A stretch of DNA of 23,497 nucleotides from an uncultured archaeon (GTDB taxonomy: Archaea > Asgardarchaeota > Lokiarchaeia > Sigyniarchaeales > SOKP01), in the NCBI GenBank assembly GCA_964583985.1, contig CAZOYD010000055.1, positions 1 to 23,497 of the forward strand, read 5' to 3'. Every line of letters starts with the position of its first letter. Position 1 is the stretch's first letter. The notes under the pieces were generated by a model, which was not told where the DNA came from, searched no databases, and saw only the letters and a program-made list of their open reading frames with translations. This document shows positions 7,563 to 23,497 of this stretch, one piece after another. The position numbers and the translations under genes were made by a program.

Positions 7563-7693
7563 TTAAGATATAATACTCATATATTTCTTAAGATCTAATA
7601 CATTAATATTTATCTAAGATTATTAGATTTATTTATTAATTGAAATGCTAAAATATTTTGTTAAGATCTAATAAAAAAGTGATTATCTAAGAT
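7563..7693. promoter_or_regulatory. Divergent promoter region with repeated candidate regulator-binding boxes
   Basis: TTAAGATCTAATA-N9-TTATCTAAGAT at 7588-7620 and 7661-7693, plus a 1-mismatch TTAAGATATAATA at 7563-7575. Confidence 0.55.
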
Positions 7694-8915
7694 GAATAAA
7701 GTTGCTATAATTGGGGTAGGTCATACAAAATTTGGAGTTCTAGAAAATAAAGAATTGTTAGATTTGTTATGTGACGCATCACTAGATGCTCTTGAAGATT
7801 CAAATACAAGTGAGAAGGATTTTGATTCTGTCTATGTAGGGGCCATGAGTCCTGCTATTTTTAATAATATATCTGGAATAGCAAGTGCCTTGGTAGATCG
7901 CATTAGTCTATTGCCTGCTGCAGCTGACCACATTGAAAATGGACCAGCAAGTGGCGGTTCTGCCATAAAAGCTGGTTTCCAGGCTATTGCATCTGGAATG
8001 AGTGATCTAGTTCTAATTGTAGGCGGCGAAAAAATGACTCACATCACTACACCCGGTCATGTTACGTCCGTGGTCGCTACTTTAACACATCCTCAAGCTG
8101 AACGTCCTTATGGTGTTTCATTACCCTCTTTAGCTGGCATGTTGACTCGATCATATTTAGAGAAATATAACGCCAAATTAGAATGGATTTCTGATATTGC
8201 TATTAAAAACCATCGGAACGGTGCATTAAATCCAAATGCACACTTTCAGAAGACTATAGAAGAATTTATGAAAAGTGCGATAGAGAAAGGGAAAGGAAAT
8301 TGGAATGATATTTATGAATTTTTAAGAGACGATGAGAGAAATCCAATAATTGCTGATCCTTTACGATTATTTCATGTCTGTCCAATATCTGATGGAGCTG
8401 CTGCTCTAGTGTTATGTAATGCTGAAAAAGCAAAAGCATATTCCGATTCTCCAATTCTAATTAGTGGGATAGGGCAAGCAACTGATACTCATATTGTTTT
8501 TGAAAGGGCGGATATCACTACTTTAAAAGCCTTAAAGCTAGCATCCTCTCAAGCATATAAAATGGCACACAAAAAGCCAGAAGATATTGATGTTGCAGAA
8601 TTGCATGATGCTTTTGAAATTTTAGAAGCAATACAATCTGAAGATATTGGTTTTTTCAAGAAAGGAGAGGGCGCTAAAGCTGCACATGAAGGGTTAACAG
8701 AAATAGGTGGAAAAATACCAATCAATCCATCTGGGGGACTAAAAGCTCGAGGACATCCTTTAGGGGCTACTGGTGTTGCTCAAGTTGTTGAATTGGTTTG
8801 GCAACTACAAGGAATAGCAGGAAAAAGACAAATTGATGGTGCTGAAACGGGTATTACATGCAATTTTGGAGGATTTGGGAATAATATTTTATCAATATTA
8901 GTAGAGCGGATATAA
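7692..8915 (+). CDS. Archaeal/SCP2-type thiolase-fold protein with atypical active site
   Basis: VAIIGVGHTKFG, GGEKM, KNHRNGALNPNAHF, PISDGAAA, AELHDAF, INPSGGLKARGHPLGATG. ENGPASG stands where ExACASG is expected. Confidence 0.88.
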   Translation: MNKVAIIGVGHTKFGVLENKELLDLLCDASLDALEDSNTSEKDFDSVYVGAMSPAIFNNISGIASALVDRISLLPAAADHIENGPASGGSAIKAGFQAIASGMSDLVLIVGGEKMTHITTPGHVTSVVATLTHPQAERPYGVSLPSLAGMLTRSYLEKYNAKLEWISDIAIKNHRNGALNPNAHFQKTIEEFMKSAIEKGKGNWNDIYEFLRDDERNPIIADPLRLFHVCPISDGAAALVLCNAEKAKAYSDSPILISGIGQATDTHIVFERADITTLKALKLASSQAYKMAHKKPEDIDVAELHDAFEILEAIQSEDIGFFKKGEGAKAAHEGLTEIGGKIPINPSGGLKARGHPLGATGVAQVVELVWQLQGIAGKRQIDGAETGITCNFGGFGNNILSILVERI

Positions 8916-9001: not shown

Positions 9002-10951
9002 TCAAAAATCTTCAGTAATCGCTTTAATCTCTTCGATAAAGGGATTAGCATAAGAGTGCCACATCTGTTTTGTAATGTCATCACCTAGAGTTTGTTCTAT
9101 AAGCTCTTCACCTTTCATTAAATGTTTAAGTGCTAAATCATAATCTTCCAACTCCCTATAACAAATTCCAAGTTTAATGTGTGTTTGATAAATATACCAA
9201 CTATTTGGATTCAATTCTATCGCCTTTTGAAACTTGCTTATTGCTGATTTATGATCATTGAAAGCCATAAGAATTTCACCATATGAGTCTTGATAAATTT
9301 CATTATTTGGCTCTCGTTCTATGAGATCCTGGATTACATTTAAAGCTTCTTCCCTTTTATTTAAATATTGATACCATAGCGCTTTGTAATTGAGAAGATC
9401 GTTGTCTTTGGGGTATTTTTTAGTTAATTCGTCTATTATTTTGAATCCTCCAATAAGATCTCGCATATTTTTTAGAATAGATGCTTTTTTCAGTTTGAGA
9501 TCTTTTTCATTTTCAGGAAAATCTCTTAGCATTCCATCAAAAAGGATTAAAGCTTCATTGTATTTATCAAAATAAAGTAGAATCCTGCTTTTAATATAAT
9601 ATAGATTGAGTTCTTTAGGGTTTTGTTCAATGGCGTTATTTATTTCTTCCAAAGTTTCATCAAAACTCTTTGCAGGGTCTATATAAAAGCTATGCGTAGT
9701 TATTTTTTCGGACTGCTCTTGTGCTTCAGAAGAACTGAAGATCTGGATTTCTTTCCATATTAATCCTTCTAATTTGTCATAAGTATCTAATAGTTTTCTT
9801 TCTTTCTCAATTTTGTATGCTAAATAGTTGATATAATCTGGTAAGAATATTTTTAGAGCTGGTCTTAAACCCGGTTTAAACAAATTTTCAATAATCTCCT
9901 CTAATATTGCATTAACAATACTTTCCATGGTTAATGGAGAGGTTCCTTCTGATATTTCTTCATTTAACTTATTTAAATATGTAAATTTAATAATATGCTC
10001 TTCCACAATTACATTAAGCATCCGTTCTAATTTCCCATTTACTTGAAAATAAAAAGTATTTCCATTGGCTAAATCTAATTTAAAAAATTTTATTGGAAAA
10101 ATATTTTCTTCAACAATACAAAGAATAACAAATTTAAGTTTAATCAGATTGATGTCGTACTTTTTAGAAAACGCCTCTGGAGAAAAATAATGAGGAAATT
10201 GGTCTGGATGATTTATAGAGAGATAAAGTAAAGCTTTATCGAAATTTTTTTCATTTTTTAAAGTGGATTTGACCTTTTCATATGGTAACTTTAACTTATT
10301 GTTTAAAAACCGAAATTTGATATCAATATCTTCTATTTTATACTCTTTAAAGAAAGTGTTTGTGCTTTTAGTAATTTCATTTATCCGTTTACTTTCTTCA
10401 TCTAAGATTGATTGTCTATCTAAATTATACAGTTTTAGTATATTTGAGTATTCAATTCTACCTAATCGAGTAATTCTATATTTTCTCTCTTCCTTTCTTA
10501 TAAACTCCTTGTCTAATAACAAATTCAAATTTTTAGATAAAGAAGATTGATTGATCGAAAGAGGAGACTCAGAAAAATCCGACCACTTACAATAATTATT
10601 GTTAGACACCATCCAAAGAATCCAATGGTCATAATTTCTTGTTCTACGTATAGCTTCGGGAGGAAAACTTATTTTTCTTATTTTTTGCTTTGCTTCAGAT
10701 AACTTATAAAATCTATCCTTACCCTTAGAGGTAATTTTATACTGATTGAAAGTGCTCTTTTCAACATAGTCTTTATCCCTTAGTCTTTTTAGGTAGTTTG
10801 ATAATGTGGAATGCGTAATTTTTTCTTTCAGGTTTGCCCATGTGCACACATCATTATTGTTCAAAATCCATAATATGATAAATTCGTAGTTAGGCTTACC
10901 AAAAGTAGGTTTTATAATCTCTTCAGGAGGATAATTACATGTAGAAACCAC
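9002..10951 (-). CDS. Tandem winged-helix + C-terminal TPR protein (paralog 1), function unknown
   Basis: Two N-terminal wHTH-like repeats (STLSNYLKRL..YVEK..YKITSKG; SSLSKNLNLL..FIRK..YRITRLG). C-terminal TPRs (e.g. YQDSYGEILMAF..AISKFQKAIELNP). GTG start with AAGGAG SD. Collinear paralog at 19224-21155. Confidence 0.8.
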   Translation of the reverse strand: MVSTCNYPPEEIIKPTFGKPNYEFIILWILNNNDVCTWANLKEKITHSTLSNYLKRLRDKDYVEKSTFNQYKITSKGKDRFYKLSEAKQKIRKISFPPEAIRRTRNYDHWILWMVSNNNYCKWSDFSESPLSINQSSLSKNLNLLLDKEFIRKEERKYRITRLGRIEYSNILKLYNLDRQSILDEESKRINEITKSTNTFFKEYKIEDIDIKFRFLNNKLKLPYEKVKSTLKNEKNFDKALLYLSINHPDQFPHYFSPEAFSKKYDINLIKLKFVILCIVEENIFPIKFFKLDLANGNTFYFQVNGKLERMLNVIVEEHIIKFTYLNKLNEEISEGTSPLTMESIVNAILEEIIENLFKPGLRPALKIFLPDYINYLAYKIEKERKLLDTYDKLEGLIWKEIQIFSSSEAQEQSEKITTHSFYIDPAKSFDETLEEINNAIEQNPKELNLYYIKSRILLYFDKYNEALILFDGMLRDFPENEKDLKLKKASILKNMRDLIGGFKIIDELTKKYPKDNDLLNYKALWYQYLNKREEALNVIQDLIEREPNNEIYQDSYGEILMAFNDHKSAISKFQKAIELNPNSWYIYQTHIKLGICYRELEDYDLALKHLMKGEELIEQTLGDDITKQMWHSYANPFIEEIKAITEDF

Positions 10952-11126
10952 AGTTGTTACTCCTTATTTAATGAACCTTAGATGAATAATGCATTAAATT
11001 CTATTTATACTTTATGATCCATAATTATTCCAAGACTCCATATAAACTTCACTAATTTAAACTATATATGCAATAATAACTTATTTACTAATAAGTAAAA
11101 AAAAAATAAAAAGGTGAAAAAAAAAA

Positions 11127-11363
11127 ATGGTTGAAGCTTATGAAAAACTTATTTTTGAAAATGAACTAATTTTTATAGAAGAACTACTCCCTGTTAAACA
11201 AAAACTGATTACAATAAAAGAAACAAACCAAAAAAATGATGCACAATTAGAAAAGAGGAAATTACTTAAGAAATGGAAAAAATCAGAAGGGAAATATTAT
11301 TTAAATACAAAGAACTTAGCTAAAACATACACTAATTTCTTAGGCGTTGGGTTTATCGCCTAA
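11127..11363 (+). CDS. Small hypothetical protein (78 aa), copy 1
   Basis: AGGTGA SD upstream of ATG, duplicated with frame conserved, followed by hairpin and T-tract. Confidence 0.7.
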   Translation: MVEAYEKLIFENELIFIEELLPVKQKLITIKETNQKNDAQLEKRKLLKKWKKSEGKYYLNTKNLAKTYTNFLGVGFIA

Positions 11364-11384
11364 TCTTTTTTTATATCTTATTTT
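11340..11384 (+). terminator. Hairpin plus T-rich tract at the end of small ORF copy 1
   Basis: TTAGGCG-N10-CGCCTAA (11340-11363) followed by TCTTTTTTTATATCTTATTTT. Confidence 0.5.
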
Positions 11385-11583
11385 GAATTTAACAATTTTT
11401 TGTTATATTTTAATGATTTCAATTATCGTTAACCTTAGATGAATATCGCATTAAATTCTATTTATACTTTATGATCCATAATTATTCCAAGACTCCATAT
11501 AAACTTCACTAATTTAAACTATATATGCAATAATAACTTATTTACTAATAAGTAAAAAAAAAATAAAAAGGTGAAAAAAAAAA

Positions 11584-11802
11584 ATGGTTGAAGCTTATGA
11601 AAAACTTATTTTTGAAAATGAACTAATTTTTATAGAAGAACTACTCCCTGTTAAACAAAAACTGATTACAATAAAAGAAACAAACCAAGAAAATGATACA
11701 CAATTAGGTAAGACGCAATTACTTAAGAAATGGAAAAAATCAGAAGGGAATTATTATTTAAATCCTAAAAAATTCGAATTTAGTTTGAAAAATTTAAAGT
11801 GA
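11584..11802 (+). CDS. Small hypothetical protein (72 aa), copy 2, with a different C-terminus
   Basis: Identical to copy 1 for 35 codons, shares LLKKWKKSEG.YYLN, same SD. Confidence 0.65.
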   Translation: MVEAYEKLIFENELIFIEELLPVKQKLITIKETNQENDTQLGKTQLLKKWKKSEGNYYLNPKKFEFSLKNLK

Positions 11803-12138
11803 ATTTTTTAGGTATAACACCCAATACTTTTTTTATATCTTATTTTGAATTTAACAATTTTGAGTAATATTTTAATAAATTCAATTATCGTTAAACCTTT
11901 TATACATTTATAAAGATAGCATAGAAGAATTAATCAATTAGCGTAATTTTTTCGGGTTGCTAAGACAAATTTAAACAGTTCTGCAACAATTGATGATTTT
12001 TACGTAAATATGAGGCATTATTAGAAGAATTATACCATCTTATCAGAAAACCTTTTATACTAACTTAACTTCTTTTTCGTAAATCCAAATAGATGCTCAG
12101 TTCATTTCATTAAAAATTAAATTACGATTGCGTTTGGA

Positions 12139-12675
12139 ATGATATTAAATTTTAAGATTACTGTCATCGGTGATGGAATGGTTGGCAAGACCTCAGTCAT
12201 TAAAAAATTCACAAAAGGCATGTTTAAGAAGGATTATATTAAAACTATTGGAGCGCAATTTTTCGTATTTGATCAAGAAATTAATGAGGATAAAATTAGA
12301 TTATTATTTTGGGATATTGCTGGTCAAGTTGACTATAATTTTTTACGACCCTCTTTTTACAATAAAAGTGACGCGGCTATAATTATCTATTCTCTGGAAG
12401 ATAATGATCTTGGAGAAAAAAGTTTTAATCATATTGTCGATTGGTATGCTGATATCTCAAAATACTGTAGTAAGATTCCTCTCGTTATATTTGCGAATAA
12501 AGTAGATTTAGTGGACCAAAACAATTTTGATGATTCTAAAATCCAAAAATTAGTAGATAGATACGACTTTCTTGGGTTTTATAAGACAAGTGCTAAAACT
12601 GGGGCTGGAATTAATGAAGCCTTTAATGCAATTATTAAAAAACTATATTATAATTATAAAAATCTAAGTGCTTAA
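12139..12675 (+). CDS. Rab-like small GTPase (copy 1)
   Basis: G1 GDGMVGKT, G2 KTIG, G3 WDIAGQ, G4 NKVD, G5 TSAK. 178 aa, no C-terminal Cys. Confidence 0.95.
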   Translation: MILNFKITVIGDGMVGKTSVIKKFTKGMFKKDYIKTIGAQFFVFDQEINEDKIRLLFWDIAGQVDYNFLRPSFYNKSDAAIIIYSLEDNDLGEKSFNHIVDWYADISKYCSKIPLVIFANKVDLVDQNNFDDSKIQKLVDRYDFLGFYKTSAKTGAGINEAFNAIIKKLYYNYKNLSA

Positions 12676-12747
12676 AATGAGTTAATTGCCAATAATATAA
12701 TCTATATATTAGTTGAAAGAACCTAATCTAATTAAAAATCAGAGCTA

Positions 12748-15700
12748 TCAAGAACTCTCTTTTTCAGTCTGTTCTACGCTTTTAAGTAGATCTTCCTTTC
12801 CAAGTTTACGAAATATTACTTTAGCCTCCTGTAATAACGAAACTATTTTTTCTCTTGCAGACGACACGTAATTTTTCTTAAGAAAAAGAGCATAACCATA
12901 AGTTAGCTTCCCCAAGTATTCGGTAATTTCAGGTTTTAATTCTACTAATTCTTTAGCCATCCTTAAGGATTCTTGATACAATAACTCAGCATCATCAAAA
13001 CGATTCATTTTATCCAACAATTCGGTCAATTGAACCGATATTCTCAACGCTCGTGTTTTCATATCTGGTGTTTGTTCCATTTTTCCAAAAAGATTCATGA
13101 CTTCTCTATATTTTGATTCTGCTTTTTCATGCTTTTCAGGAGGACCATACAAATGTAAAGAAGCTGCAAGAAAAAAGATGCACTCCCCTAAATTAACCAT
13201 TAATCCTGGCGTTTTCTTTACTTCTTCTTCATAGATCTGAATAGTTTCATCCATCAAGGATTCGATTTCATCAATTTTATCATTCTTTCTTGATTTGATC
13301 TGTGATGATAATGCTTGGGCTAGTTTATGTTGTACATTTGCTATGTTTATGCGCATCTCTGGTAATGTTTCATTCATTTTTCTTAAAATAACCAAAGCAT
13401 CACGTAAAAGTTCTTCAATCTCACTCAATTTTTCCGTATTCCCTAACAACGTTAATACATCTGCCAGTTTTACTTCAATATTTACAATATCTGAATTAGA
13501 AGTAGTGGATAATTGTGAATTTGTTCTAAGCATGATGAGAACTTCTTTATATAAAATTTCCGCTTGAATTAATTTATCTTTAGTTCTGAATTGAGTTGAT
13601 AATTCTGCCAATGAAAACAAGCTTTTGAGATATTCTGTTTTAACATCAGGAAAATCAGAAGCAAGTTTTCTTTGGATATTAATCGCGTTTTTAAAATGAT
13701 CTTCTGCTTCAATCAAATTTTCTCTGGTTCTTAAAATAGTTAATACAAACGCTAATCCATACTCGATACGTGCAAAAAGGGCTTGAAATTGAGGTGTATC
13801 TATTAAATTTGTCCTTGCGTAAGCTAAAGCTTCTCGCAAAATTAATTCTACTTCATTGTATTTCTGATTACCTTCACCTAATAATATGATATTTGCCAGT
13901 TTATAGGATGTATCCATGATTGCAATTTCAATACCGGGCATGTCGCGTTGATTTTTCAAATATGTAAGAGCATCTCTACAATAGATTTTTGCTTCTTTTA
14001 CCTTCTCCTTTTTAGCTGATTGCTGATACAGTTCAACTAACGCAATCTTGGTTTTATATAAATTCATTTCTGCATTTGGAATATTGCTTATATTTTCTTT
14101 AAAAATTGATAACGCTTCGATTAAACATTTCTCTGTTTCTGCAAATTTCAATGGATTTCTTAACCTTAGTAAAAAGGATGAAAAATTCAATAATGATATT
14201 GCTAGATCACCCTTGCTCCCGGGAAATTCTTTAATCCGTTTTCTAAACATATCAATAGAATTAGTATAAAATTTTTCTGCTTCAATTAGTTTCTCAGGAA
14301 CATTAATCTTACTTAGAAGATCTGCTAAAACTCCCAATGTCCGGGCGAGATTAATCTCGGCTAAGGGATTGTGTTCAATTTGGTCTCTATTTATTTCTAC
14401 AGTATCACGCAATAAATTTTCCGCTTCTGCAAAACGTTGTACACCGCCTAAATTGATTAAAATATTAGCTAGATCGGTTGCTGTAGTCGTTATATCAATT
14501 TTGAGTCCATGACTGGTTTTATTTAATTCTTGTTGGATGGATAATGCCTCTCGATAACACTTTTCTATCTCACTTAAATTCGTTGAATCTCCCATCATTC
14601 TTAAAATGCTTCCCAAACTGGTCAACGCATTTGAAAGATTTACCTTTAGGTCTTTCGATTCTTGGGTAAAATCTCGGTAAATTTGTATGCTTTCCCTTAA
14701 TAAAGATTCTGCCATTTTCATGGATTGAATTCCACCTTTACTTGCAATAAAATTAGCATAATAGTATAAAATATGTGCCATGAGTCCACGTATTTGGGGA
14801 TTCAATTCCACTAATGCTTTGGTAGTTTTGAGTGCATCTTGATATAAACTTAAAGTTTGATTGTAGTAATCTTCTCGACCAAAATTGTGTAGAAAATTTG
14901 CATAGTTTAGTTTTATCATCGCAAGATTGATTTTTAGTTCCGGAATTTGATCCATTAGATCCTCTTGAATTTTTATGGATTCTTGATAAAGGGATATGGC
15001 TTCTGTGAGATTTTTCGCTCCACCTTTTATCATTATTAATTCTGCGAGAGTTACGTTCATTGATGCAATACTTAATCGTGATCGTGGCAAGTATTGAGCT
15101 TCTTCTCTCATTATATTAATAATTTGATGATAAAGATCTTCAGCTTGATCTAATTTCTCTGTCCCTCCTATTATCCTAAACAATTGTGCAAGTGTAAACA
15201 AGTTTTGAACTTTTAATTTTGAAGTAGATATCCCCATTTCTTCTAATCTGGTAGTTATAGATAATGATTTTCTAATTAATGATTCTGCTTCACTTAATTT
15301 TTCTTTATCACCGTAATCTTTTATAAAAGTAGCTAATTGTATGAGATTATAGGCAAGACCTTCCAATGCAGAAGGCATTTTCTCCGAAATATCCTCAAAT
15401 ATCATTAAAGCTTCTCTTTGGAGTGTTTCAGCTTCTTTAAAATAGTGCTCTCCTTGAGTCCTCAAATGAATTGCTAACGAATATAATGAAGAAGCTAAAC
15501 CTCTTTGCATTGACGGTTGAGTTTTTACAATCTCTCTTTGGATCTTAATCGCTTCTCGATACATTTCTTCAATATCTTGAGATTTTTCTACTTTTTTCTG
15601 AAGTACTAATACGTTAGCATATTGTACTAATGATTCTACTAAAGCAGTTTTTGCTCCAGGGATAAAAGTTGCAATTTCTTTATGAATTGTCAAAGCCTCT

Positions 15701-18282
15701 CGACATAAAGTCTCAATTTCAGGCATTTTTTCAGCTTCTCCGTACTTTTGCAACAATCTTGATAAGGATAACATGGAACGAGCTAAATTAAACTTTAAAC
15801 GGGAATCACCCTCAGCTAATTTCTTATTAATTGCATATGATTCACGGATTAATGACTCTGCTTCTCTTAAATTAGTTTCACCTTGGAAAATTAATAAGAG
15901 ATTAGCTAATGCATCAGCAGTTTTAGCAATTTCCCGTTGATCTTCAATCGAATTATTATCATATTTTCTCTTCATTTGTAATGCGTTTCTGAAGAGGATC
16001 TCTGCTTCTTGTAAATTTATTTTGCCCCCCACATTCATTAAGAGGAACGCGAGTGAATCAGAAGCTTGAATTATGCGTTTTCGAGACAATGAAGTTAATT
16101 CAGCAACTTTATCATAATGCTCTAATATCCTTTTATATATCTTTTCGGCCAATGCATTATTTTCCGGACCGCCAAATCTTGCGAGGTTATTGGCAAATAG
16201 TATAAGTATGCCAGTATCATGAGAAGAAATAACCTCACTTGTATAAACCGTTCTTATCCATCGAGTTGGATCTTCTAATAACCCCGCCCAATCAAAAAAT
16301 AAGCATATCGCTGGCGTCAATTCCTGTAATTTTAAATGATCGAATTTCTCAGCTATATTAGCACAAGCTGAAATGTTTGCATACTCTTCCAATAAAAAAG
16401 TAGCATTTGAAGGTTTATATATGCCCGATCTCATCTCATTTTGAAAGGAATTTATCTCTTTTAAATAAAAATCAATAGCCTCTATTAAAGTCTTTCTTGT
16501 AATCTCATCTGAGGAAATCATCTGTCGTATTGACTCGATGCTACGATATCGACCTCCTGATCTTATTAACAAACCATTAGTTAAAGCGGGGGCCAATAAT
16601 TCAGTAAACTTATCTCCAATCTTAAATTGAGCAACTTTTGGGGATAAACCAGCCGGAAAAGCTAGTGCTATTTGTAACGCTAAGCGAGAATCTTCCGGTA
16701 AAAGCTCAAACGTCGTATTTATTACAGCTTTAGAGGCTTTTTCTGGATCTTCTAATAAACTTTTATATAAGTTCTCTTTCCCCTCATCTGATAATTTTGC
16801 TGCTCGACGACCAAGAATTCTTATAGAACCGGGATTTGTGGAAAGCCGATTTAATAACTTTTCTCCCTTTTCTGAGATCGCCTCTGCTTTTGATTCTAAA
16901 ATGAAAAGCTCTCGTGCTTCTTCATAATTAAGAGGTCCTAAGTTAATAGTTAGTGCATTTACGTTATCTAAAAAATCAGATCCGACTTCTTCGCTAATAG
17001 ATGTTCTTGTTGTTAAAATGAGTGCACCATTACCCTCTAATTTCATGAGTAATTGGAATAGGGTGTCTAAAAACTCAGTCTTGAGTTCCTTTTCTTGCCT
17101 TAAAGGATCCTCAACATTATCTGCAATAATTAAAGCTCGACGAGCGCTAACCTCATTAAAAATTTCGTCTTTTTCTGTTATTTCCTCAGATAATCCTAAT
17201 GCGTCTCTGATGCCAAAAATTAAGGAAGACGCTCCCTTCTGATTTCTTAAATCCACAAAAATAGACGTACTAAAAGTATTATTCATGCCTTGTTCTTGTC
17301 GTATGTTCTGAGCAGCAGCTCGTGCTAATTGAGTTTTTCCAATACCCGCAGGTCCAATAATTTCAACTAAAACTGCCTTACTATTGACTAATGCTTTATT
17401 TATCCGTTCTATTTCGATAATCCTTCCTTGAAATCCAGATTCTGGGGCAGGGATGAAATCACTTGATTCTAATAAAGCCAAAAATGCATCCACTGCAGAA
17501 TGAGCTGTTATTCCTGTTCCAACTGCATAAGGAATTACACGTACTCCGATTCGCCTCAATCGTTTCTGTAGTTCAAATTCAGCATCTGGTAAAAGAGCAA
17601 ACACTTCCAATTCATCAACGAAATTTCTATGTAAATATTCTAAATTTTTTAAAATGTAGGTATCAGTTATCGAATAACCAACAAAAATTATCGCCCATCG
17701 TAAAAAAATTTGTTTAAGGACTTCTTGATATGCTTTATCATCTTCAAGCGCTTGATATTGTTCTTTTGTAAACACCATGAGATGAGGTTTAGTAGGATCA
17801 CCATGAATCTTAAATAAAAATTTTCTCTGTTGGAGATTCATCAGCACATCTTTATAATCTCGATATATGATTTCTTCAAGCGTAAATCCACAATGATCTT
17901 CCAAAATTGTATCAAAATTAGTAGTTACTACACCAGGTAGATCATCGCGGAGTTCAGACACTACTTTATATCTTTCAGGCATATCACCAGAGATCTCTGG
18001 TTTTAAGGCTTCTTGAAGGAAATTCATAAAAACTTGAATATCTCCTGAAGCTATCGTCAATTTAGAAGCAATATCAGATAATTCCTCAAAATTTGTATCC
18101 CATTCTAAAGAATTAATTCTTTCCTTTAGATTATCGGAACAATTGATTTTTTCGGAAATTGCTTTTAATAATCGCGCCCAAGATGGAACTCCTAATGCAG
18201 CGCTTACACCAGCGCCGAAAAATGGTAAAAGAGTTCCTGATTTTTTTGCTCTAAATAGTTCTTCTGGAACTGTAACTTTCAT
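12748..18282 (-). CDS. SIR2-like NADase + STAND (NB-ARC/AfsR-like) ATPase + long TPR-like repeat array; NLR/Avs-like immune receptor candidate
   Basis: SIR2: FFGAGVS, PSW, TTNFD, KIHGD, FVGYS. STAND: FQGRIIE, Walker A GPAGIGKT, Walker B LIIADNVE, sensor-1 LILTTR, LGPL..EEARELF, FPAG. Then ~24 helical repeats of ~48 aa. ATG 18282 (in-frame TTG 18285). Confidence 0.9.
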   Translation of the reverse strand: MKVTVPEELFRAKKSGTLLPFFGAGVSAALGVPSWARLLKAISEKINCSDNLKERINSLEWDTNFEELSDIASKLTIASGDIQVFMNFLQEALKPEISGDMPERYKVVSELRDDLPGVVTTNFDTILEDHCGFTLEEIIYRDYKDVLMNLQQRKFLFKIHGDPTKPHLMVFTKEQYQALEDDKAYQEVLKQIFLRWAIIFVGYSITDTYILKNLEYLHRNFVDELEVFALLPDAEFELQKRLRRIGVRVIPYAVGTGITAHSAVDAFLALLESSDFIPAPESGFQGRIIEIERINKALVNSKAVLVEIIGPAGIGKTQLARAAAQNIRQEQGMNNTFSTSIFVDLRNQKGASSLIFGIRDALGLSEEITEKDEIFNEVSARRALIIADNVEDPLRQEKELKTEFLDTLFQLLMKLEGNGALILTTRTSISEEVGSDFLDNVNALTINLGPLNYEEARELFILESKAEAISEKGEKLLNRLSTNPGSIRILGRRAAKLSDEGKENLYKSLLEDPEKASKAVINTTFELLPEDSRLALQIALAFPAGLSPKVAQFKIGDKFTELLAPALTNGLLIRSGGRYRSIESIRQMISSDEITRKTLIEAIDFYLKEINSFQNEMRSGIYKPSNATFLLEEYANISACANIAEKFDHLKLQELTPAICLFFDWAGLLEDPTRWIRTVYTSEVISSHDTGILILFANNLARFGGPENNALAEKIYKRILEHYDKVAELTSLSRKRIIQASDSLAFLLMNVGGKINLQEAEILFRNALQMKRKYDNNSIEDQREIAKTADALANLLLIFQGETNLREAESLIRESYAINKKLAEGDSRLKFNLARSMLSLSRLLQKYGEAEKMPEIETLCREALTIHKEIATFIPGAKTALVESLVQYANVLVLQKKVEKSQDIEEMYREAIKIQREIVKTQPSMQRGLASSLYSLAIHLRTQGEHYFKEAETLQREALMIFEDISEKMPSALEGLAYNLIQLATFIKDYGDKEKLSEAESLIRKSLSITTRLEEMGISTSKLKVQNLFTLAQLFRIIGGTEKLDQAEDLYHQIINIMREEAQYLPRSRLSIASMNVTLAELIMIKGGAKNLTEAISLYQESIKIQEDLMDQIPELKINLAMIKLNYANFLHNFGREDYYNQTLSLYQDALKTTKALVELNPQIRGLMAHILYYYANFIASKGGIQSMKMAESLLRESIQIYRDFTQESKDLKVNLSNALTSLGSILRMMGDSTNLSEIEKCYREALSIQQELNKTSHGLKIDITTTATDLANILINLGGVQRFAEAENLLRDTVEINRDQIEHNPLAEINLARTLGVLADLLSKINVPEKLIEAEKFYTNSIDMFRKRIKEFPGSKGDLAISLLNFSSFLLRLRNPLKFAETEKCLIEALSIFKENISNIPNAEMNLYKTKIALVELYQQSAKKEKVKEAKIYCRDALTYLKNQRDMPGIEIAIMDTSYKLANIILLGEGNQKYNEVELILREALAYARTNLIDTPQFQALFARIEYGLAFVLTILRTRENLIEAEDHFKNAINIQRKLASDFPDVKTEYLKSLFSLAELSTQFRTKDKLIQAEILYKEVLIMLRTNSQLSTTSNSDIVNIEVKLADVLTLLGNTEKLSEIEELLRDALVILRKMNETLPEMRINIANVQHKLAQALSSQIKSRKNDKIDEIESLMDETIQIYEEEVKKTPGLMVNLGECIFFLAASLHLYGPPEKHEKAESKYREVMNLFGKMEQTPDMKTRALRISVQLTELLDKMNRFDDAELLYQESLRMAKELVELKPEITEYLGKLTYGYALFLKKNYVSSAREKIVSLLQEAKVIFRKLGKEDLLKSVEQTEKESS

Positions 18283-18643
18283 CAAAATAACAACGTTTTA
18301 TAACTATAATTTTTTTTATTTGGACTTATTACGTTGTTTAAAACGATTATAAAATTTATTACTTTAGATTTTTTTTAAGTCATATTTTATGGACTTTATG
18401 CTGATTATTAATTCCAACGCTATAGAATTAACAATTATAATAAATATGAAATCATTCAAGCTCTATCCTATAGTTCTCATCCAGTATATGACGGTTCTTT
18501 TTGAATTTTATTAGATATCTGGCTCACGCATCTAATTCTTTTAATCTAACTGGCGATGATTAAATTAAACGGTTGTTTGATCAAACTTTTGGTTTTACCA
18601 ATCTTTATATTAACCTTCACTATATTTCCTTTGTGGTATATGT

Positions 18644-19183
18644 ATGCTAGAACAAGATCTTTACAAGTTTAAAATTGTATTAATTGGAAATGGTGGTGTA
18701 GGGAAAACATCCTTGATTAAACGTTATACACAAAATTCATTCCAAAAACAATACATAAGAACCATTGGAGCTCAATTTTCTTTTCATGAGAATGAAATTG
18801 AAAATGATCACGTAAAATTGATTTTATGGGACATCGCTGGTCAAGACAACTTTATTTTTATGCGATCACTGTTTTTCAAAGATAGTAAGGCAGCTATTAT
18901 TGTATATAGCCTTGAAATGAACAAATTAGGTAAAAAGAGTTTAGATGATATAAAAATTTGGTACGACGATATAAGAAAACATTGTGGAAGTATACCAGTT
19001 GCTGTTTTCGCGAATAAAGTGGACTTAGCATATGAAAATGTTGTCGATATTGAAAAAGTAAAAGATATCATTGGAAAAAATGATTTTCTTGGATATTTCG
19101 TTACCTCAGCAAAAACTGGTCAAGGAGTAATAGAAGGCTTTGAATCTATCTACGAGCAAATGTATTATAAGTATCGAACTTAG
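18644..19183 (+). CDS. Rab-like small GTPase (copy 2)
   Basis: GNGGVGKT, RTIG, WDIAGQ, NKVD, TSAK. 179 aa. TATA-like CTTTATAT about 35 nt upstream. Confidence 0.95.
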   Translation: MLEQDLYKFKIVLIGNGGVGKTSLIKRYTQNSFQKQYIRTIGAQFSFHENEIENDHVKLILWDIAGQDNFIFMRSLFFKDSKAAIIVYSLEMNKLGKKSLDDIKIWYDDIRKHCGSIPVAVFANKVDLAYENVVDIEKVKDIIGKNDFLGYFVTSAKTGQGVIEGFESIYEQMYYKYRT

Positions 19184-19223
19184 GTATTATCTAGTTTTGT
19201 TAGAAAAATAAGTAGTATGATAA

Positions 19224-21155
19224 TTAATTGCGCTTGAATTCCTTTAATTCTTCAATAAAGGGCTCAACGATCGATAACCATTTTTGTTTAGATTCCTCAT
19301 TGACTTCACTTTTTTCAACCGCTTCTTTCCCTCTGAGTAAATATTCCATCGCAATCTCTAAATTTCCAATTTGTCTGCGACATATACCTATTTTAATTAA
19401 GGTTTGGAACTCATACCAATTATCTTTACCCAAATCAAGAGCTTTTTGAAATGCATTTATTGCTTTCTCATATTCTTCAAAGGCCATTAATATTTCGCCA
19501 TACGTATCATGATAAGCTGCATTATCTGGTGCTAAATCTATAATTCCCCGAATAGTGGATATAGCTTCACCTTTTCGATCCAAATATTGGAGCCAATAAG
19601 CTTTATAACTAATAAGATCGAGATCATCAGGATACTCCGTTATCAAATCCTCAATAATTTCTAGCCCTTCCTCTATATCTCGTTTTTCTTTTAATATATA
19701 AGCGATTTTAATCTTAATCTCTTTTCTCTTACCGGGGAATTTATCTATCATTTCATCATATAAACCAAGTAACGCATCATATCTATTAAAATAGACCAAT
19801 ATGTTTTCCTTAGATCGATAATGTTCAAGATTGTAAGGATCTTTCTTGATATTTTTTTCAATTTGCTTTACCTTTTCTTCAACATTTATTCCTTCTTTCA
19901 CGTCTGGATCTGTTATCGCAATCTTTTTTACTTCTTTCCAGATTAATCCCTTTAACTTGTCATTACTTCCCCTAAAAATCCTTTTACGCTCAAATTTAAA
20001 TGCTAAATATCTAATATATGATGGCAACAAAATCTTTAACATTTCCCGAAGACCGCCATTAAAGATCTTGCCACAAATATCGTCTAATATTGAATTTATA
20101 ATAACATCCAAATTTTCTAATAGTTCTTCTCGTAATTCATTTTCATACATTCTATTTAAATACGTAAATTTTGTAATTTGTTCCTCAACACTAGCTTTTA
20201 ACATTTTTTCGAGCTTGTCGTCTTCCTGTAGAAAAAAACACGATCCATTTGTACTTTCGATCTTGAAAAACTTGATTGAATATAACGACTTTTCAATAAT
20301 TTGGATGACAAAAAAATCTAATGTTGTGAGTGCGATGTCATATTCTAACGAAAAATCTTCTTTGGTAATATGGTTAGGAAATTGACTTGGATGGTTATAT
20401 GAAAGGAATAATATGATTTTATAAAAATCGTTTTCAGTCAGGAGATCCTTCACTTTTGCATGTGAAAGCTTTAATAAGTAATTGAGAAACCGAAAACGAA
20501 GGTCATTATCCTGAATATTATAATTTTTAAAAAAATCGACTGTTTTTGCCGTTAAATCTTTAATTCTATTACTCTCAAATTCTAAAATAGATTGTCGATC
20601 AAGTTCATACTTTTTGAGCATTCTCGAATATTCTGATTTCCCTAGTTGTGTTATGTGATAATTATGTTTCTCATCTTTTCGAATATATTCATTTTCTTCG
20701 CTCATTAAATTATTGAGTGCTTTTGAAAGTGAAGATTGGTTAATAGATACGGGTTTTTCAAGAAAATCGCTCCACGTGAGAAAATTATTATTATACGCCA
20801 TCCATAAAATCCAGTCCTCATAATTCCTTCCCGATTGTAACATCTGCCGAGGTGGATAATTCACTTTTCTCTTCTTACTTTTTGTTTGTGATAATTCATA
20901 AAATCGATCTTTACCACTTAAAGAAATGCGATATTCATTATATTCAGTACGTTCTACATGTTTTATTGCTAAAAGTTTCTTTAGATAAAGAGAAAGTGTT
21001 GAAGGTTTTATTATCTTCTTAAAATCGCCCCAACTGCAATTTTCATTATTATTGAGCATCCATAAAATTATCAACTCAAAATCAGCCTTGCCAAAAATAG
21101 GATTTGCGACTTCTTCAGGCGGATAGTTTATCGGAGTATCCATGAGGGTCATCAT
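19224..21155 (-). CDS. Tandem winged-helix + C-terminal TPR protein (paralog 2), function unknown
   Basis: Collinear with 9002-10951: NYPPEE..P.FGK, IILW.LNNN, SINQSSLSK, LDRQSIL, FRFLN, NHP.QFP, KFTYLN, YKA.W.QYL, D[ST]YGEILMAF. Exact start (21155/21152/21143) uncertain. Confidence 0.8.
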   Translation of the reverse strand: MMTLMDTPINYPPEEVANPIFGKADFELIILWMLNNNENCSWGDFKKIIKPSTLSLYLKKLLAIKHVERTEYNEYRISLSGKDRFYELSQTKSKKRKVNYPPRQMLQSGRNYEDWILWMAYNNNFLTWSDFLEKPVSINQSSLSKALNNLMSEENEYIRKDEKHNYHITQLGKSEYSRMLKKYELDRQSILEFESNRIKDLTAKTVDFFKNYNIQDNDLRFRFLNYLLKLSHAKVKDLLTENDFYKIILFLSYNHPSQFPNHITKEDFSLEYDIALTTLDFFVIQIIEKSLYSIKFFKIESTNGSCFFLQEDDKLEKMLKASVEEQITKFTYLNRMYENELREELLENLDVIINSILDDICGKIFNGGLREMLKILLPSYIRYLAFKFERKRIFRGSNDKLKGLIWKEVKKIAITDPDVKEGINVEEKVKQIEKNIKKDPYNLEHYRSKENILVYFNRYDALLGLYDEMIDKFPGKRKEIKIKIAYILKEKRDIEEGLEIIEDLITEYPDDLDLISYKAYWLQYLDRKGEAISTIRGIIDLAPDNAAYHDTYGEILMAFEEYEKAINAFQKALDLGKDNWYEFQTLIKIGICRRQIGNLEIAMEYLLRGKEAVEKSEVNEESKQKWLSIVEPFIEELKEFKRN

Positions 21156-21408
21156 GCAATAATAATATTATTATTAATAATAATTCATCATCTTAATTTA
21201 TGAATAAACTTTTGGACTATTATTAGACTCTTCTTAAAAACAGCAAATAATGGCTAAATATCCACAAACAAGCAATTATCCGCTATTTTTGAAACTTTTT
21301 CATTATGGAAATTCTAAAAAAGAAGCTATAAATTTTTATATTAGAATATATCTAATCTTACATTAGAATATTAAAATTTATTCAATTCCACATTAAAGGG
21401 ATGATTGA

Positions 21409-21954
21409 ATGCCTAATAATCGATTCCAATTTAAAATAGCTGTAGTGGGATATGGTGCGGTCGGAAAGACTTCATTGATTAGCCAGTTTACAAAAACATC
21501 ATTTAAAGAGGAATATATCAAGACAATTGGGGCTCAATTCTCCGTATATGAAAAATCAATTAACGATGATAAAATTAAACTCTTATTTTGGGACATCGCA
21601 GGTCAGGATGATTTCAATTTCTTGCGGCCCTCTTTTTTCAATAATAGCAAAGCCGCTATCATAGTATTTAGCTTAGAAGAAAATGAGCTTGGAAAAGTGA
21701 GTTTTGAACACGTTAAAAATTGGCACGAAGATGTTAAAAAGTACTGTGGAGATATACCCATTATCTTATTCGCAAATAAGGTTGACTTAGTTGATGAGAC
21801 TCAGATTAATAGAGATCAGCTTAACAAACTTGTTAAAAAATTAAAATTCTTAAATTATCGCATTACGTCCGCTAAAACCGGAGAGGGCGTGGTTGAAGCT
21901 TTTAATGAAATCATTGAAATATTATATCGTAATGCAATAGTCACAATCCAATAA
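21409..21954 (+). CDS. Rab-like small GTPase (copy 3)
   Basis: GYGAVGKT, KTIG, WDIAGQ, NKVD, TSAK. 181 aa, no C-terminal Cys. Confidence 0.95.
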   Translation: MPNNRFQFKIAVVGYGAVGKTSLISQFTKTSFKEEYIKTIGAQFSVYEKSINDDKIKLLFWDIAGQDDFNFLRPSFFNNSKAAIIVFSLEENELGKVSFEHVKNWHEDVKKYCGDIPIILFANKVDLVDETQINRDQLNKLVKKLKFLNYRITSAKTGEGVVEAFNEIIEILYRNAIVTIQ

Positions 21955-22108: not shown

Positions 22109-22360
22109 ATGATGAAAAGATCTGTAATGACTCGAGAAGAGTTAGACGAGAGAATATTGAACAGAATACCGCATTCAGGATGTCAACAGTATGATGGTGT
22201 CTTCTTTTTAACAAGTTTGCTCGTGAATCGAAGAAGAAAAAAGCAAGAGAAATTGGAAAAATTGATGCTTACGCGGGAGCAAAACCAATCAGCGGTAATA
22301 GTAGAATCTCCTAAAGAGGTGCAAAGACTTAACCTTATCGAAAGAGTGAATGAGGTGTAA
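22109..22360 (+). CDS. Small hypothetical protein (83 aa), paralog of the next ORF
   Basis: AAGGAG SD. Shares the RIP...C..[DE]G-hydrophobic-basic pattern and VE[SA]PKE with 22367-22597. Confidence 0.6.
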   Translation: MMKRSVMTREELDERILNRIPHSGCQQYDGVFFLTSLLVNRRRKKQEKLEKLMLTREQNQSAVIVESPKEVQRLNLIERVNEV

Positions 22361-22366
22361 TATTAA

Positions 22367-22597
22367 ATGAGTGAAAAAGATTATATAGAAGATAATTATA
22401 ATAGAACCATTTATTACCGCATTCCCACAATGAGTTGTTGCTCTGAAGGGCTCTGGGTCCTGAGCGCACTTTTTACTAAATGGCGTAAAAACCGTAAGGC
22501 TAAAAAACAAGGACAAGTAGAAGCTCCAAAAGAAGCGTTAGAAACTGAACAACCAATAGAATCACCAGAAAGGAAATTAGAAACAATTACAATTTAA
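22367..22597 (+). CDS. Small hypothetical protein (76 aa)
   Basis: GAGGTG SD 9 nt upstream, similarity to the preceding ORF, followed by a T-tract. Confidence 0.65.
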   Translation: MSEKDYIEDNYNRTIYYRIPTMSCCSEGLWVLSALFTKWRKNRKAKKQGQVEAPKEALETEQPIESPERKLETITI

Positions 22598-22763: not shown

Positions 22764-23048
22764 GTGTGTAAGGAAATGACCCAAATGAATAATATTGGTT
22801 TCTTGGCAGGTTATAAAGAAGATATACATGAAATAATAAAAATGCCACGTAGAATAACTGAAGATAATCTAAGATCTAGCCTGTATAAATCTATTGAAAA
22901 CGCTTATAGAAATTTCCAAGTAGATGTTAAAAAGGTTTTAGTGAACGAAAAGAAAGAGAATTGGAGGGCCGTAACTTTAGATTACTTTAAAGAAGTCGAA
23001 GAAATACTGCGAGACCAGGAAATTTGGGCAAGTTTAACATCATGCTAA
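22764..23048 (+). CDS. Hypothetical helical protein (~90 aa)
   Basis: Open frame with protein-like composition. AAGGA upstream of alternative ATGs at 22776/22785. No family recognised. Confidence 0.55.
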   Translation: MCKEMTQMNNIGFLAGYKEDIHEIIKMPRRITEDNLRSSLYKSIENAYRNFQVDVKKVLVNEKKENWRAVTLDYFKEVEEILRDQEIWASLTSC

Positions 23049-23139: not shown

Positions 23140-23349
23140 ATGAATGCAGTAAATATTGAATTAACAGGACCATCCGAAGAAGAGGAACTTGAAGAAATTG
23201 ATAAAAAAAAGCTATTCAAGGAATTGCGTAAACCATTATCCTATTATTCCTTAAATCCGGAAGATTTCAAATTCAGATTCTCAGATTTATATTCACTTTA
23301 TTTTTTTTTAAAATTTAAGTTATATGCACAACCTTTTTTAAGGCTCTGA
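23140..23349 (+). CDS. Small hypothetical protein (69 aa)
   Basis: ATG start and charged N-terminal half. The C-terminal part runs through T-rich sequence, so coding status is uncertain. Confidence 0.35.
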   Translation: MNAVNIELTGPSEEEELEEIDKKKLFKELRKPLSYYSLNPEDFKFRFSDLYSLYFFLKFKLYAQPFLRL

Positions 23350-23397: not shown

Positions 23398-23497
23398 ATG
23401 AATAAAATGGCAAAATTAAAAGAAAAACTTCTCGCTCGATACGGGAAAGAATTAGGAGAAAAATTATTTTCAAGCATTCAAGAAGGGATTAAAAATA
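23398..23497 (+). CDS. 5' fragment of a hypothetical protein running off the window
   Basis: ATG 23398 opens MNKMAKLKEKLLARYGKELGEKLFSSIQEGIKN with no stop before the edge. Confidence 0.45.
   Translation, partial: MNKMAKLKEKLLARYGKELGEKLFSSIQEGIKN

Follow-up and report, generated by a model that had tools for sequence, protein, structure and literature searches.

In Myxococcus xanthus, the GTP-bound form of the small GTPase MglA binds the tetratricopeptide repeats (TPRs) of SgmX (PMC7668184). Longins are platforms for GTPases (PMC10933270). A DENN-roadblock-Rab operon described from Asgard archaea is pan-Asgard, encodes DENN and LAMTOR-like proteins, and has no transcription regulator (10.1101/2020.10.19.343400). 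GTPase genes of MK-D1 are generally not in operons with regulators, which hampers the matching of GTPases with their guanine nucleotide exchange factors (GEFs) and GTPase-activating proteins (GAPs) (Tran et al. 2024, PMC10933270). Dozens of Rab-like GTPases, and longin proteins, encoded by Asgard archaea have no assigned role. The stretch considered here, termed the window, is the whole of a 23,497-nucleotide contig (C55) from the 3.8-Mb, 138-contig genome G000 of an uncultured, Loki-type Asgard archaeon; G denotes related genomes, C contigs within a genome and L fetched loci. It carries three Rab-like GTPase genes (Rab1, Rab2 and Rab3), two genes for proteins with winged helices followed by TPRs (WT1 and WT2), and a SIR2-STAND-TPR gene. 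The window is best explained as two copies of a lineage-specific signalling cassette together with one unrelated immune gene. No description of the cassette was found in the searchable literature, a scope that mostly leaves out subscription papers.

The cassette resembles MglA-MglB-SgmX in that a GTPase lies beside, and co-evolves with, a regulator of the roadblock/longin superfamily, and in having a TPR protein that would read the GTP state (PMC7668184; PMC4316618). However, the cassette GTPase is of Rab type and not MglA, the putative regulator is a longin, not a roadblock protein, and is fused to TPRs or to a seven-transmembrane (7TM) part, and the TPR partner has winged helices, so that the predicted output is transcription and not pili. 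Binding by SgmX has been demonstrated, whereas that between WT and GTPase is weakly predicted. The cassette would work like coupled prokaryotic GTPase systems such as MglA/MglB/SgmX, but it is not a member of them. With the DENN-roadblock-Rab operon it shares a conserved neighbourhood of Rab-like GTPase and putative GEF, but the WT cassette includes a regulator, is multi-copy and hardly occurs outside one family. Eukaryotic Rabs with longin GEFs (Rab23 with Fuzzy-Inturned, Rab7 with Mon1-Ccz1, and TRAPP) are similar in the longin topology of the partner, and Rab23, Rab21 and Thor-Rab are the best solved-structure matches of the profile of the cassette GTPases; the cassette differs in that its longin is a single one and is joined to a TPR solenoid.

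Joint inheritance of WT genes and one Rab-like clade

The WT gene and one clade of Rab-like GTPases have been inherited and duplicated together, with the cassette as the unit of duplication. In the host genus, a GTPase of the subfamily lies within 15 kb of 39 of the 45 WT genes of the ~640-amino-acid (aa) class, and within 1.3 kb of 23 of them; the adjacencies are divergent in 14 cases and convergent in 14. For WT proteins of ~830–850 aa the 15-kb count is 10/19, with six in tandem, and those of ~1000 aa have no subfamily GTPase nearby, either in the genus (0/15) or in held-out genera (0/15). The held-out genera have a clade GTPase within 15 kb of 32 of 43 WT genes of the ~640-aa class and of one of 18 of the ~850-aa class. 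Linkage persists in divergent, convergent and tandem orientation, and genomes of four genera each retain the pair at several unlinked loci, among paralogs that are 42–55% identical. Within the host genome, four of the five subfamily GTPases have a WT gene, or any TPR gene, at most three genes away, as against 0/55 of the others, the background being 0.7% of genes for WT and 2.5% for any TPR gene; the four are not independent, as three share this locus. In other genomes, a WT or TPR-longin gene is found within 9 kb of 53/58 fetched GTPases of the expanded clade vs 0/16 outside it, although the loci were partly chosen by WT adjacency.

The in-genome and held-out counts lead us to reject chance adjacency of two expanded families, and in this respect the initial annotation, which proposed a link between Rab and TPR genes, was right. 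Distances between WT proteins also follow those between their partner GTPases (rho 0.62 for 45 pairs; 1000 within-genome shuffles gave a mean of 0.16 and a maximum of 0.37). The matching trees point to the cassette as a duplication unit, not to protein binding.

The principal genes of the window are:

9002–10951, minus strand: WT1, 649 aa; Pfam HTH_45, HTH_34 and TPR; Sso10a-family match, E 9.5e-10
12139–12675, plus strand: Rab1, GTPase of the WT-linked clade (trees) and divergent partner of WT1; Pfam Ras, E 1.7e-39; G1–G5 motifs intact
12748–18285, minus strand: SIR2-STAND-TPR, 1845 aa; SIR2_2, NACHT, NB-ARC and TPR
18644–19183, plus strand: Rab2, clade GTPase with WT2 as conserved neighbour (tail-to-tail, 40 bp); arrangement kept in G001, G006, G022 and G023
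19224–21155, minus strand: WT2, 643 aa; three predicted winged helices plus TPRs (AlphaFold2, alignment)
21409–21954, plus strand: Rab3, clade GTPase and divergent partner of WT2 (253 bp), from Pfam and neighbourhoods; weakly predicted complex with WT2

Gene order, strands and domains are as first described, and each Rab gene is head-to-head with a large TPR gene, across gaps of 1187 bp (Rab1), 358 bp (Rab2) and 253 bp (Rab3). Rab1 and Rab2 are additionally tail-to-tail with the gene that follows (72 and 40 bp). An assembly artefact was rejected because an independent Logan contig covers 12517–19776 of the window with 99.99% identity. The initial annotation had seen in this arrangement a three-fold repeated module. 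That view is abandoned, because SIR2-STAND-TPR is unrelated to WT (it has 48-residue repeats and no BLAST similarity to WT1 or WT2) and because the GTPase paralogs are, according to their tree, older than the species splits; there are two modules and an insertion. The partner of Rab2 also changes, as its conserved neighbour is WT2, tail-to-tail in all five loci of the Rab2 clade, and the upstream gene is variable. Synteny shows that the window is a composite of units shared with different relatives: the WT1-micro-protein-Rab1 unit is common to G014 and G015, and Rab2-WT2-Rab3 with the downstream open reading frames (ORFs) to G023, and at the syntenic loci of these three genomes no SIR2-STAND-TPR gene is present.

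The three Rabs are indeed close paralogs. Pairwise identity among them is 51–60%, and with the genome's GTPases outside their subfamily it does not exceed 39%; the subfamily has five members (Rab1–Rab3 and one each on C13 and C53) among about 60 small GTPases. The G1–G5 motifs and the catalytic Gln are intact in all three (G..VGKTS, T, WDIAGQ, NKVD, TSAK), and the GTPase tree has a supported clade of 62 rows (99/98). In contrast to eukaryotic Rabs, the chain of the clade GTPases stops just after helix 5 and lacks a hypervariable tail, and it carries a clade-specific LExNxxG insert. The RabF motifs are not matched: IGAQF stands in place of IGVDF, and RabF3–5 are replaced by F.FLR, F(Y/F)..S and (Y/F)SLE. 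A Cys within the last five residues is found in none of the genome's GTPases, nor was a prenylation-type tail found. Judged by these sequence features, the clade GTPases appear Rab-like as switches, yet they are not part of the Rab family; the similarity is not orthology.

In two genomes, a clade GTPase is fused to the C-terminus of a CDC48 N-domain/helical region/degenerate GTPase (L131:2853–4904 and L132:205–2190). These are the only long ORFs seen with a clade GTPase; no WT-GTPase fusion was among them, though no search was dedicated to longer proteins. An ortholog from outside the clade (G000:C53:7539–11324; L178:3947–6819) lies in a conserved block with TBP-like, V4R-like and thioredoxin-like genes and a second small GTPase, all named by inspection.

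WT1 and WT2 are 46% identical; the genome has three more WT paralogs, and orthologs of WT1 occur in G008, G014 and G015 (74–81% identity). The AlphaFold2 model of WT2 (mean pLDDT 81.5, pTM 0.40) shows three helix-helix-helix-hairpin units at about residues 26–90, 112–182 and 241–310, then a helical linker and TPRs at 425–642. The first winged-helix unit matches HTH_45 and the Sso10a family. Fold searches with WT against the PDB and the Atlas gave generic TPR matches only, and Atlas feature matches of the N-terminus were all below 0.9. Regulators of the RRNPP (NprR, PlcR, Rgg) and MalT-like types appear to differ from WT, which has tandem winged helices as its DNA-binding domains and TPRs that match generic TPRs and not those of RRNPP; RRNPP is absent among the listed structural matches of the model. 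From the modelled fold, WT is a probable DNA-binding transcription regulator. The family is large (906 clusters; size classes of ~640, ~850 and ~1000 aa) and is present in 43/53 genomes of the host's Promethearchaeota family and in none of the other families sampled among 250 genomes of the phylum. A single match outside the host family lies in a sister family.

Where WT proteins of ~850 aa occur without a GTPase (L063–L066, L077, L079, L080, L081), other genes follow on the same strand. One of these is a small radical SAM gene (L079:6331–7047), which suggests a different regulon for the GTPase-free class. In four species, the position downstream of WT is taken by a gene for a LuxE-like acyl-protein synthetase (L041:8933–10204, L044, L049 and L050).

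TPR-longin proteins, micro-proteins and cargo

In the usual layout of the cassette, WT is divergent from a variable cargo, which is followed by one or more genes for TPR proteins of ~560–700 aa and then by the GTPase; tandem copies of this unit give rise to the tail-to-tail contacts. The cargo differs by species and consists of exported or membrane proteins and of micro-proteins. Two components had not been recognized initially: a conserved micro-protein family and, as a third regular component, the TPR-longin.

In many loci the TPR-longin gene is directly 5′ of the GTPase gene and has its orientation. Of the 58 fetched clade GTPases, 31 have a TPR-longin gene no more than 9 kb away, and nine have a 7TM-longin beside them. 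Fold search assigns the N-terminal part to a Rap/NprR/MalT-like solenoid, and residues 431–537 have a beta-beta-alpha-beta-beta-beta-alpha-alpha topology in the AlphaFold2 secondary structure. The C-terminal profile matches the genome's best Fuz_longin_1 protein (E 3.7e-6), a transitive match; direct sequence search of the longin-like domain against the PDB and Pfam gave nothing significant, and fold-search matches of the whole protein were filled by its TPR part. The TPR-longin of this locus is just past the end of the window, on the overlapping contig C54. Beyond the overlap C54 carries a B12 radical SAM gene, the TPR-longin gene, DUF35 and methylmalonyl-CoA mutase, and G023 keeps the same order as C55/C54 up to the TPR-longin.

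The tandem membrane proteins of ~360 aa that are tail-to-tail with a clade GTPase in several loci (L041:3846–6027, L042:2007–4194 and L048–L051) have a C-terminal domain that aligns loosely with the TPR-longin C-terminus.

The smaller features of the window are:

10974–11894, plus strand: recent 457-bp tandem duplication of promoter block and micro-protein gene; repeat families D1 (97%) and D3 (93%)
10994–11074, no strand: conserved block in the WT1/micro-protein intergenic region, containing a TATA-like element and phased short repeats; a weak candidate operator
11127–11363, plus strand: micro-protein copy a, 78 aa, with a C-terminal tail that deviates from the family motif (alignment)
11584–11802, plus strand: micro-protein copy b, 72 aa; intact tail WK..YYLNP..F.F...L; orthologs in G014 and G015
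22109–22360, 22367–22597 and 22764–23048, plus strand: three small ORFs downstream of Rab3; order conserved in G023
23140–23349, plus strand: third member of the micro-protein family (family profile, alignment)
23398–23497, plus strand: start of a small ORF that runs into C54 (exact 55-bp overlap of C55 and C54)

Both small ORFs before Rab1 derive from the recent duplication. They and the member at 23140–23349 belong to a family with a conserved aromatic C-terminal tail. The profile of this family gives 34 matches outside its training set, of which 15, counted by hand, have a clade GTPase at a distance of up to about 9 kb; six of these sit between WT and GTPase. By inspection the micro-proteins are hydrophilic and have no evident signal peptide, an apparent further difference from RRNPP systems. 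The tiny ORFs in the gap between WT2 and Rab3 are not conserved in G023.

An ORF of ~75–90 aa lies directly upstream of a B12-binding radical SAM gene of ~750 aa at the end of the window (23398–23497 into C54:1–2472) and in L067, L069, L135 and L138. These ORFs are alike in their helical N-terminus and vary in their C-terminal tail, and in sequence the two genes look like the precursor and maturase of a ribosomally synthesized and post-translationally modified peptide.

The SIR2-STAND-TPR gene

The catalytic Asn and His of the SIR2 domain (TTNFD at 121, KIHG at 159) align with those of KomC and ThsA. The STAND part has NACHT (E 7.5e-9) and NB-ARC matches, a Walker A motif at 311, Walker B IIADN and LTTR at 424, and about 1100 residues with 48-aa repeats make up the C-terminal sensor region. 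The protein is similar to Avs5-type SIR2-STAND proteins (PMC11897194) and Dsr1 in joining SIR2, STAND and helical repeats in one chain, in the catalytic and Walker motifs, and in a patchy distribution. It differs in the length of its repeat region, in having only two close homologs found, and in its profile matches, since PADLOC and NCBIfam gave no Avs profile for it but SIR2-domain matches only (LmuA, Dsr1, ThsA). The two orthologs (68% and 66% identity), one in G007 and one on a JGI contig, align over the gene only and have unrelated flanks. A recent foreign origin is not supported, because third-position GC content and codon usage are typical of the genome; flanking repeats gave nothing informative. 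SIR2-STAND-TPR is very probably a stand-alone, Avs-like predicted NADase with a viral product as trigger, which was inserted at the variable position separating Rab1 from Rab2. It is a separate and rare candidate for a nucleotide-binding leucine-rich repeat (NLR)-like defence protein of Asgard archaea.

Three more SIR2-TPR proteins are encoded in G000 (C17:44020–46458, C94:5623–9687 and C133:677–2962), and some SIR2 genes of the family are preceded by another domain (e.g. L178:481–2967).

A proposed transcriptional switch and its rivals

The divergent layout, the tandem winged helices and the conserved intergenic block together lead to the reading of WT as an autoregulated transcription factor. 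The winged helices would bind the phased repeats between the promoters and control both the WT gene and the divergent operon, and we consider this probable. The block at 10994–11074 is mostly invariant across four species. Upstream of WT genes an AGTTC-type motif is about nine-fold enriched, often with 11-bp spacing, and both halves of the WT family give related top words; as an operator, this motif is a lead only. The TPR-longin is a natural candidate for GEF or GAP, since longins are GTPase platforms (PMC10933270). By this analogy, the longin domain of TPR-longin or 7TM-longin may act on the GTPase while the TPR or membrane part senses an input, for which we see even chances. The GTP-bound GTPase might in turn dock on WT and switch its DNA binding, which would close a feedback loop, as the GTPase gene lies within the regulated operon; this step is a tentative one, with MglA-GTP and the TPRs of SgmX as a precedent (PMC7668184). 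The WT2-Rab3 complex was predicted with a score of 0.37, with 0.00 for the best control, contact agreement between runs of at least 0%, and a partner pLDDT of at least 73. The mark set for this score is reached by 58/80 solved and 2/110 mismatched pairs, and at scores up to 0.60 by seven solved pairs and both mismatches. The models thus hint weakly at direct binding of GTPase to WT. The GTPase-coupled winged-helix output proposed initially is upheld as regards a conserved, non-random link and co-duplication, and the binding itself is weakly predicted.

A GTPase-linked transcriptional switch on a divergent operon, with the SIR2 gene as a passenger, is the reading that we judge best and somewhat likely to be correct. 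The complete circuit of receptor, G-protein and transcription, in which the GTPase is loaded by a TPR- or 7TM-longin sensor and, once GTP-bound, directly gates the winged-helix TPR factor, is doubtful. If GTPase gating is true, eukaryote-like trafficking parts would serve gene control here and not membranes; a transcriptional output, if confirmed, would mean that neither prenylation nor organelles are needed for Rab/longin modules to work in gene control. The family also offers many cognate, co-duplicated sets of GTPase, longin and regulator, in which partner specificity and output can be tested with small soluble proteins.

Several points weigh against the switch. At p<0.05, a motif matrix from one half of the WT family scores only 3/28 or 7/29 members of the other, and it fails on both promoters of the window. 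The three WT2-Rab3 runs scored 0.38, 0.00 and 0.37. The longin call derives from topology and a transitive profile match and not from a direct structure match. The genomes are all kin, so that the counts are not independent events, and no cross-genome P values are given. Co-duplicated linked genes yield matching trees without physical contact, and the occurrence of ~1000-aa and many ~850-aa WT proteins away from any GTPase indicates that the fold needs none in cis. It might be that WT is a one-component regulator of the GTPase/longin operon without feedback, that its TPRs read, for example, the micro-protein tail in an RRNPP-like manner, and that the GTPase has its role further down, at membranes or on exported cargo. 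Binding of C-terminal peptides is common among TPRs, and the conserved aromatic tail, the micro-protein matches near clade GTPases and the frequency of exported or membrane proteins in the cargo all fit. However, many cassettes have no micro-protein, 19/34 matches are elsewhere, the GTPase also adjoins WT in tail-to-tail pairs, whose linkage a shared promoter cannot account for, and a weak WT2-Rab3 contact is predicted; we regard this alternative as rather unlikely. That the linkage is a by-product of tandem duplication in a thiolase/DUF35 hotspot, with no functional coupling of WT and GTPase, would agree with the instability of the region, as seen in the recent 457-bp duplication, the cargo differing by species and the thiolase/DUF35 pair split by the block. 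It is improbable in view of the unlinked loci, four genera, three orientations and diverged paralogs in which the pair is kept.

The initial annotation had also made SIR2-STAND-TPR the middle partner in a guard/decoy arrangement, in which it would monitor the neighbouring Rab-like GTPases and deplete NAD+ on tampering. The gene does lie between two GTPases, head-to-head with Rab2, both its SIR2 and its STAND motifs are intact, guards can be unlinked to the proteins they guard, and Avs7 binds the host GTPase EF-Tu via its TPR sensor (PMC12803255). Against this, the gene occurs in 2/134 genomes of the host family, whereas the cassette is in most, neither ortholog (G007, JGI contig) has a GTPase or WT gene beside it, and syntenic loci carry different genes in the Rab1/Rab2 slot. 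SIR2 genes are common (114/134 family genomes), but in 48 genomes only one of 107, namely the window gene, shares a contig with a WT of the 640/850 class, and the 1.16 Mb of fetched loci contain no SIR2 domain except in the control locus. The only other SIR2 gene near a subfamily GTPase (G019:C106) adjoins the unlinked, TBP-adjacent ortholog. Enrichment of SIR2 genes near cassettes is rejected on these counts, a single landing would be compatible with chance, and the guard function is most improbable.

The left part of the window encodes leucyl-tRNA synthetase, a PatB-like lyase, two thiolase-fold proteins and a 2-oxoacid:ferredoxin oxidoreductase set (names partly by inspection). One thiolase-fold protein (7692–8915) has ENGPASG at the position usual for the acylated Cys, and its DUF35 partner has been moved by the signalling block to C54:4600–4986.

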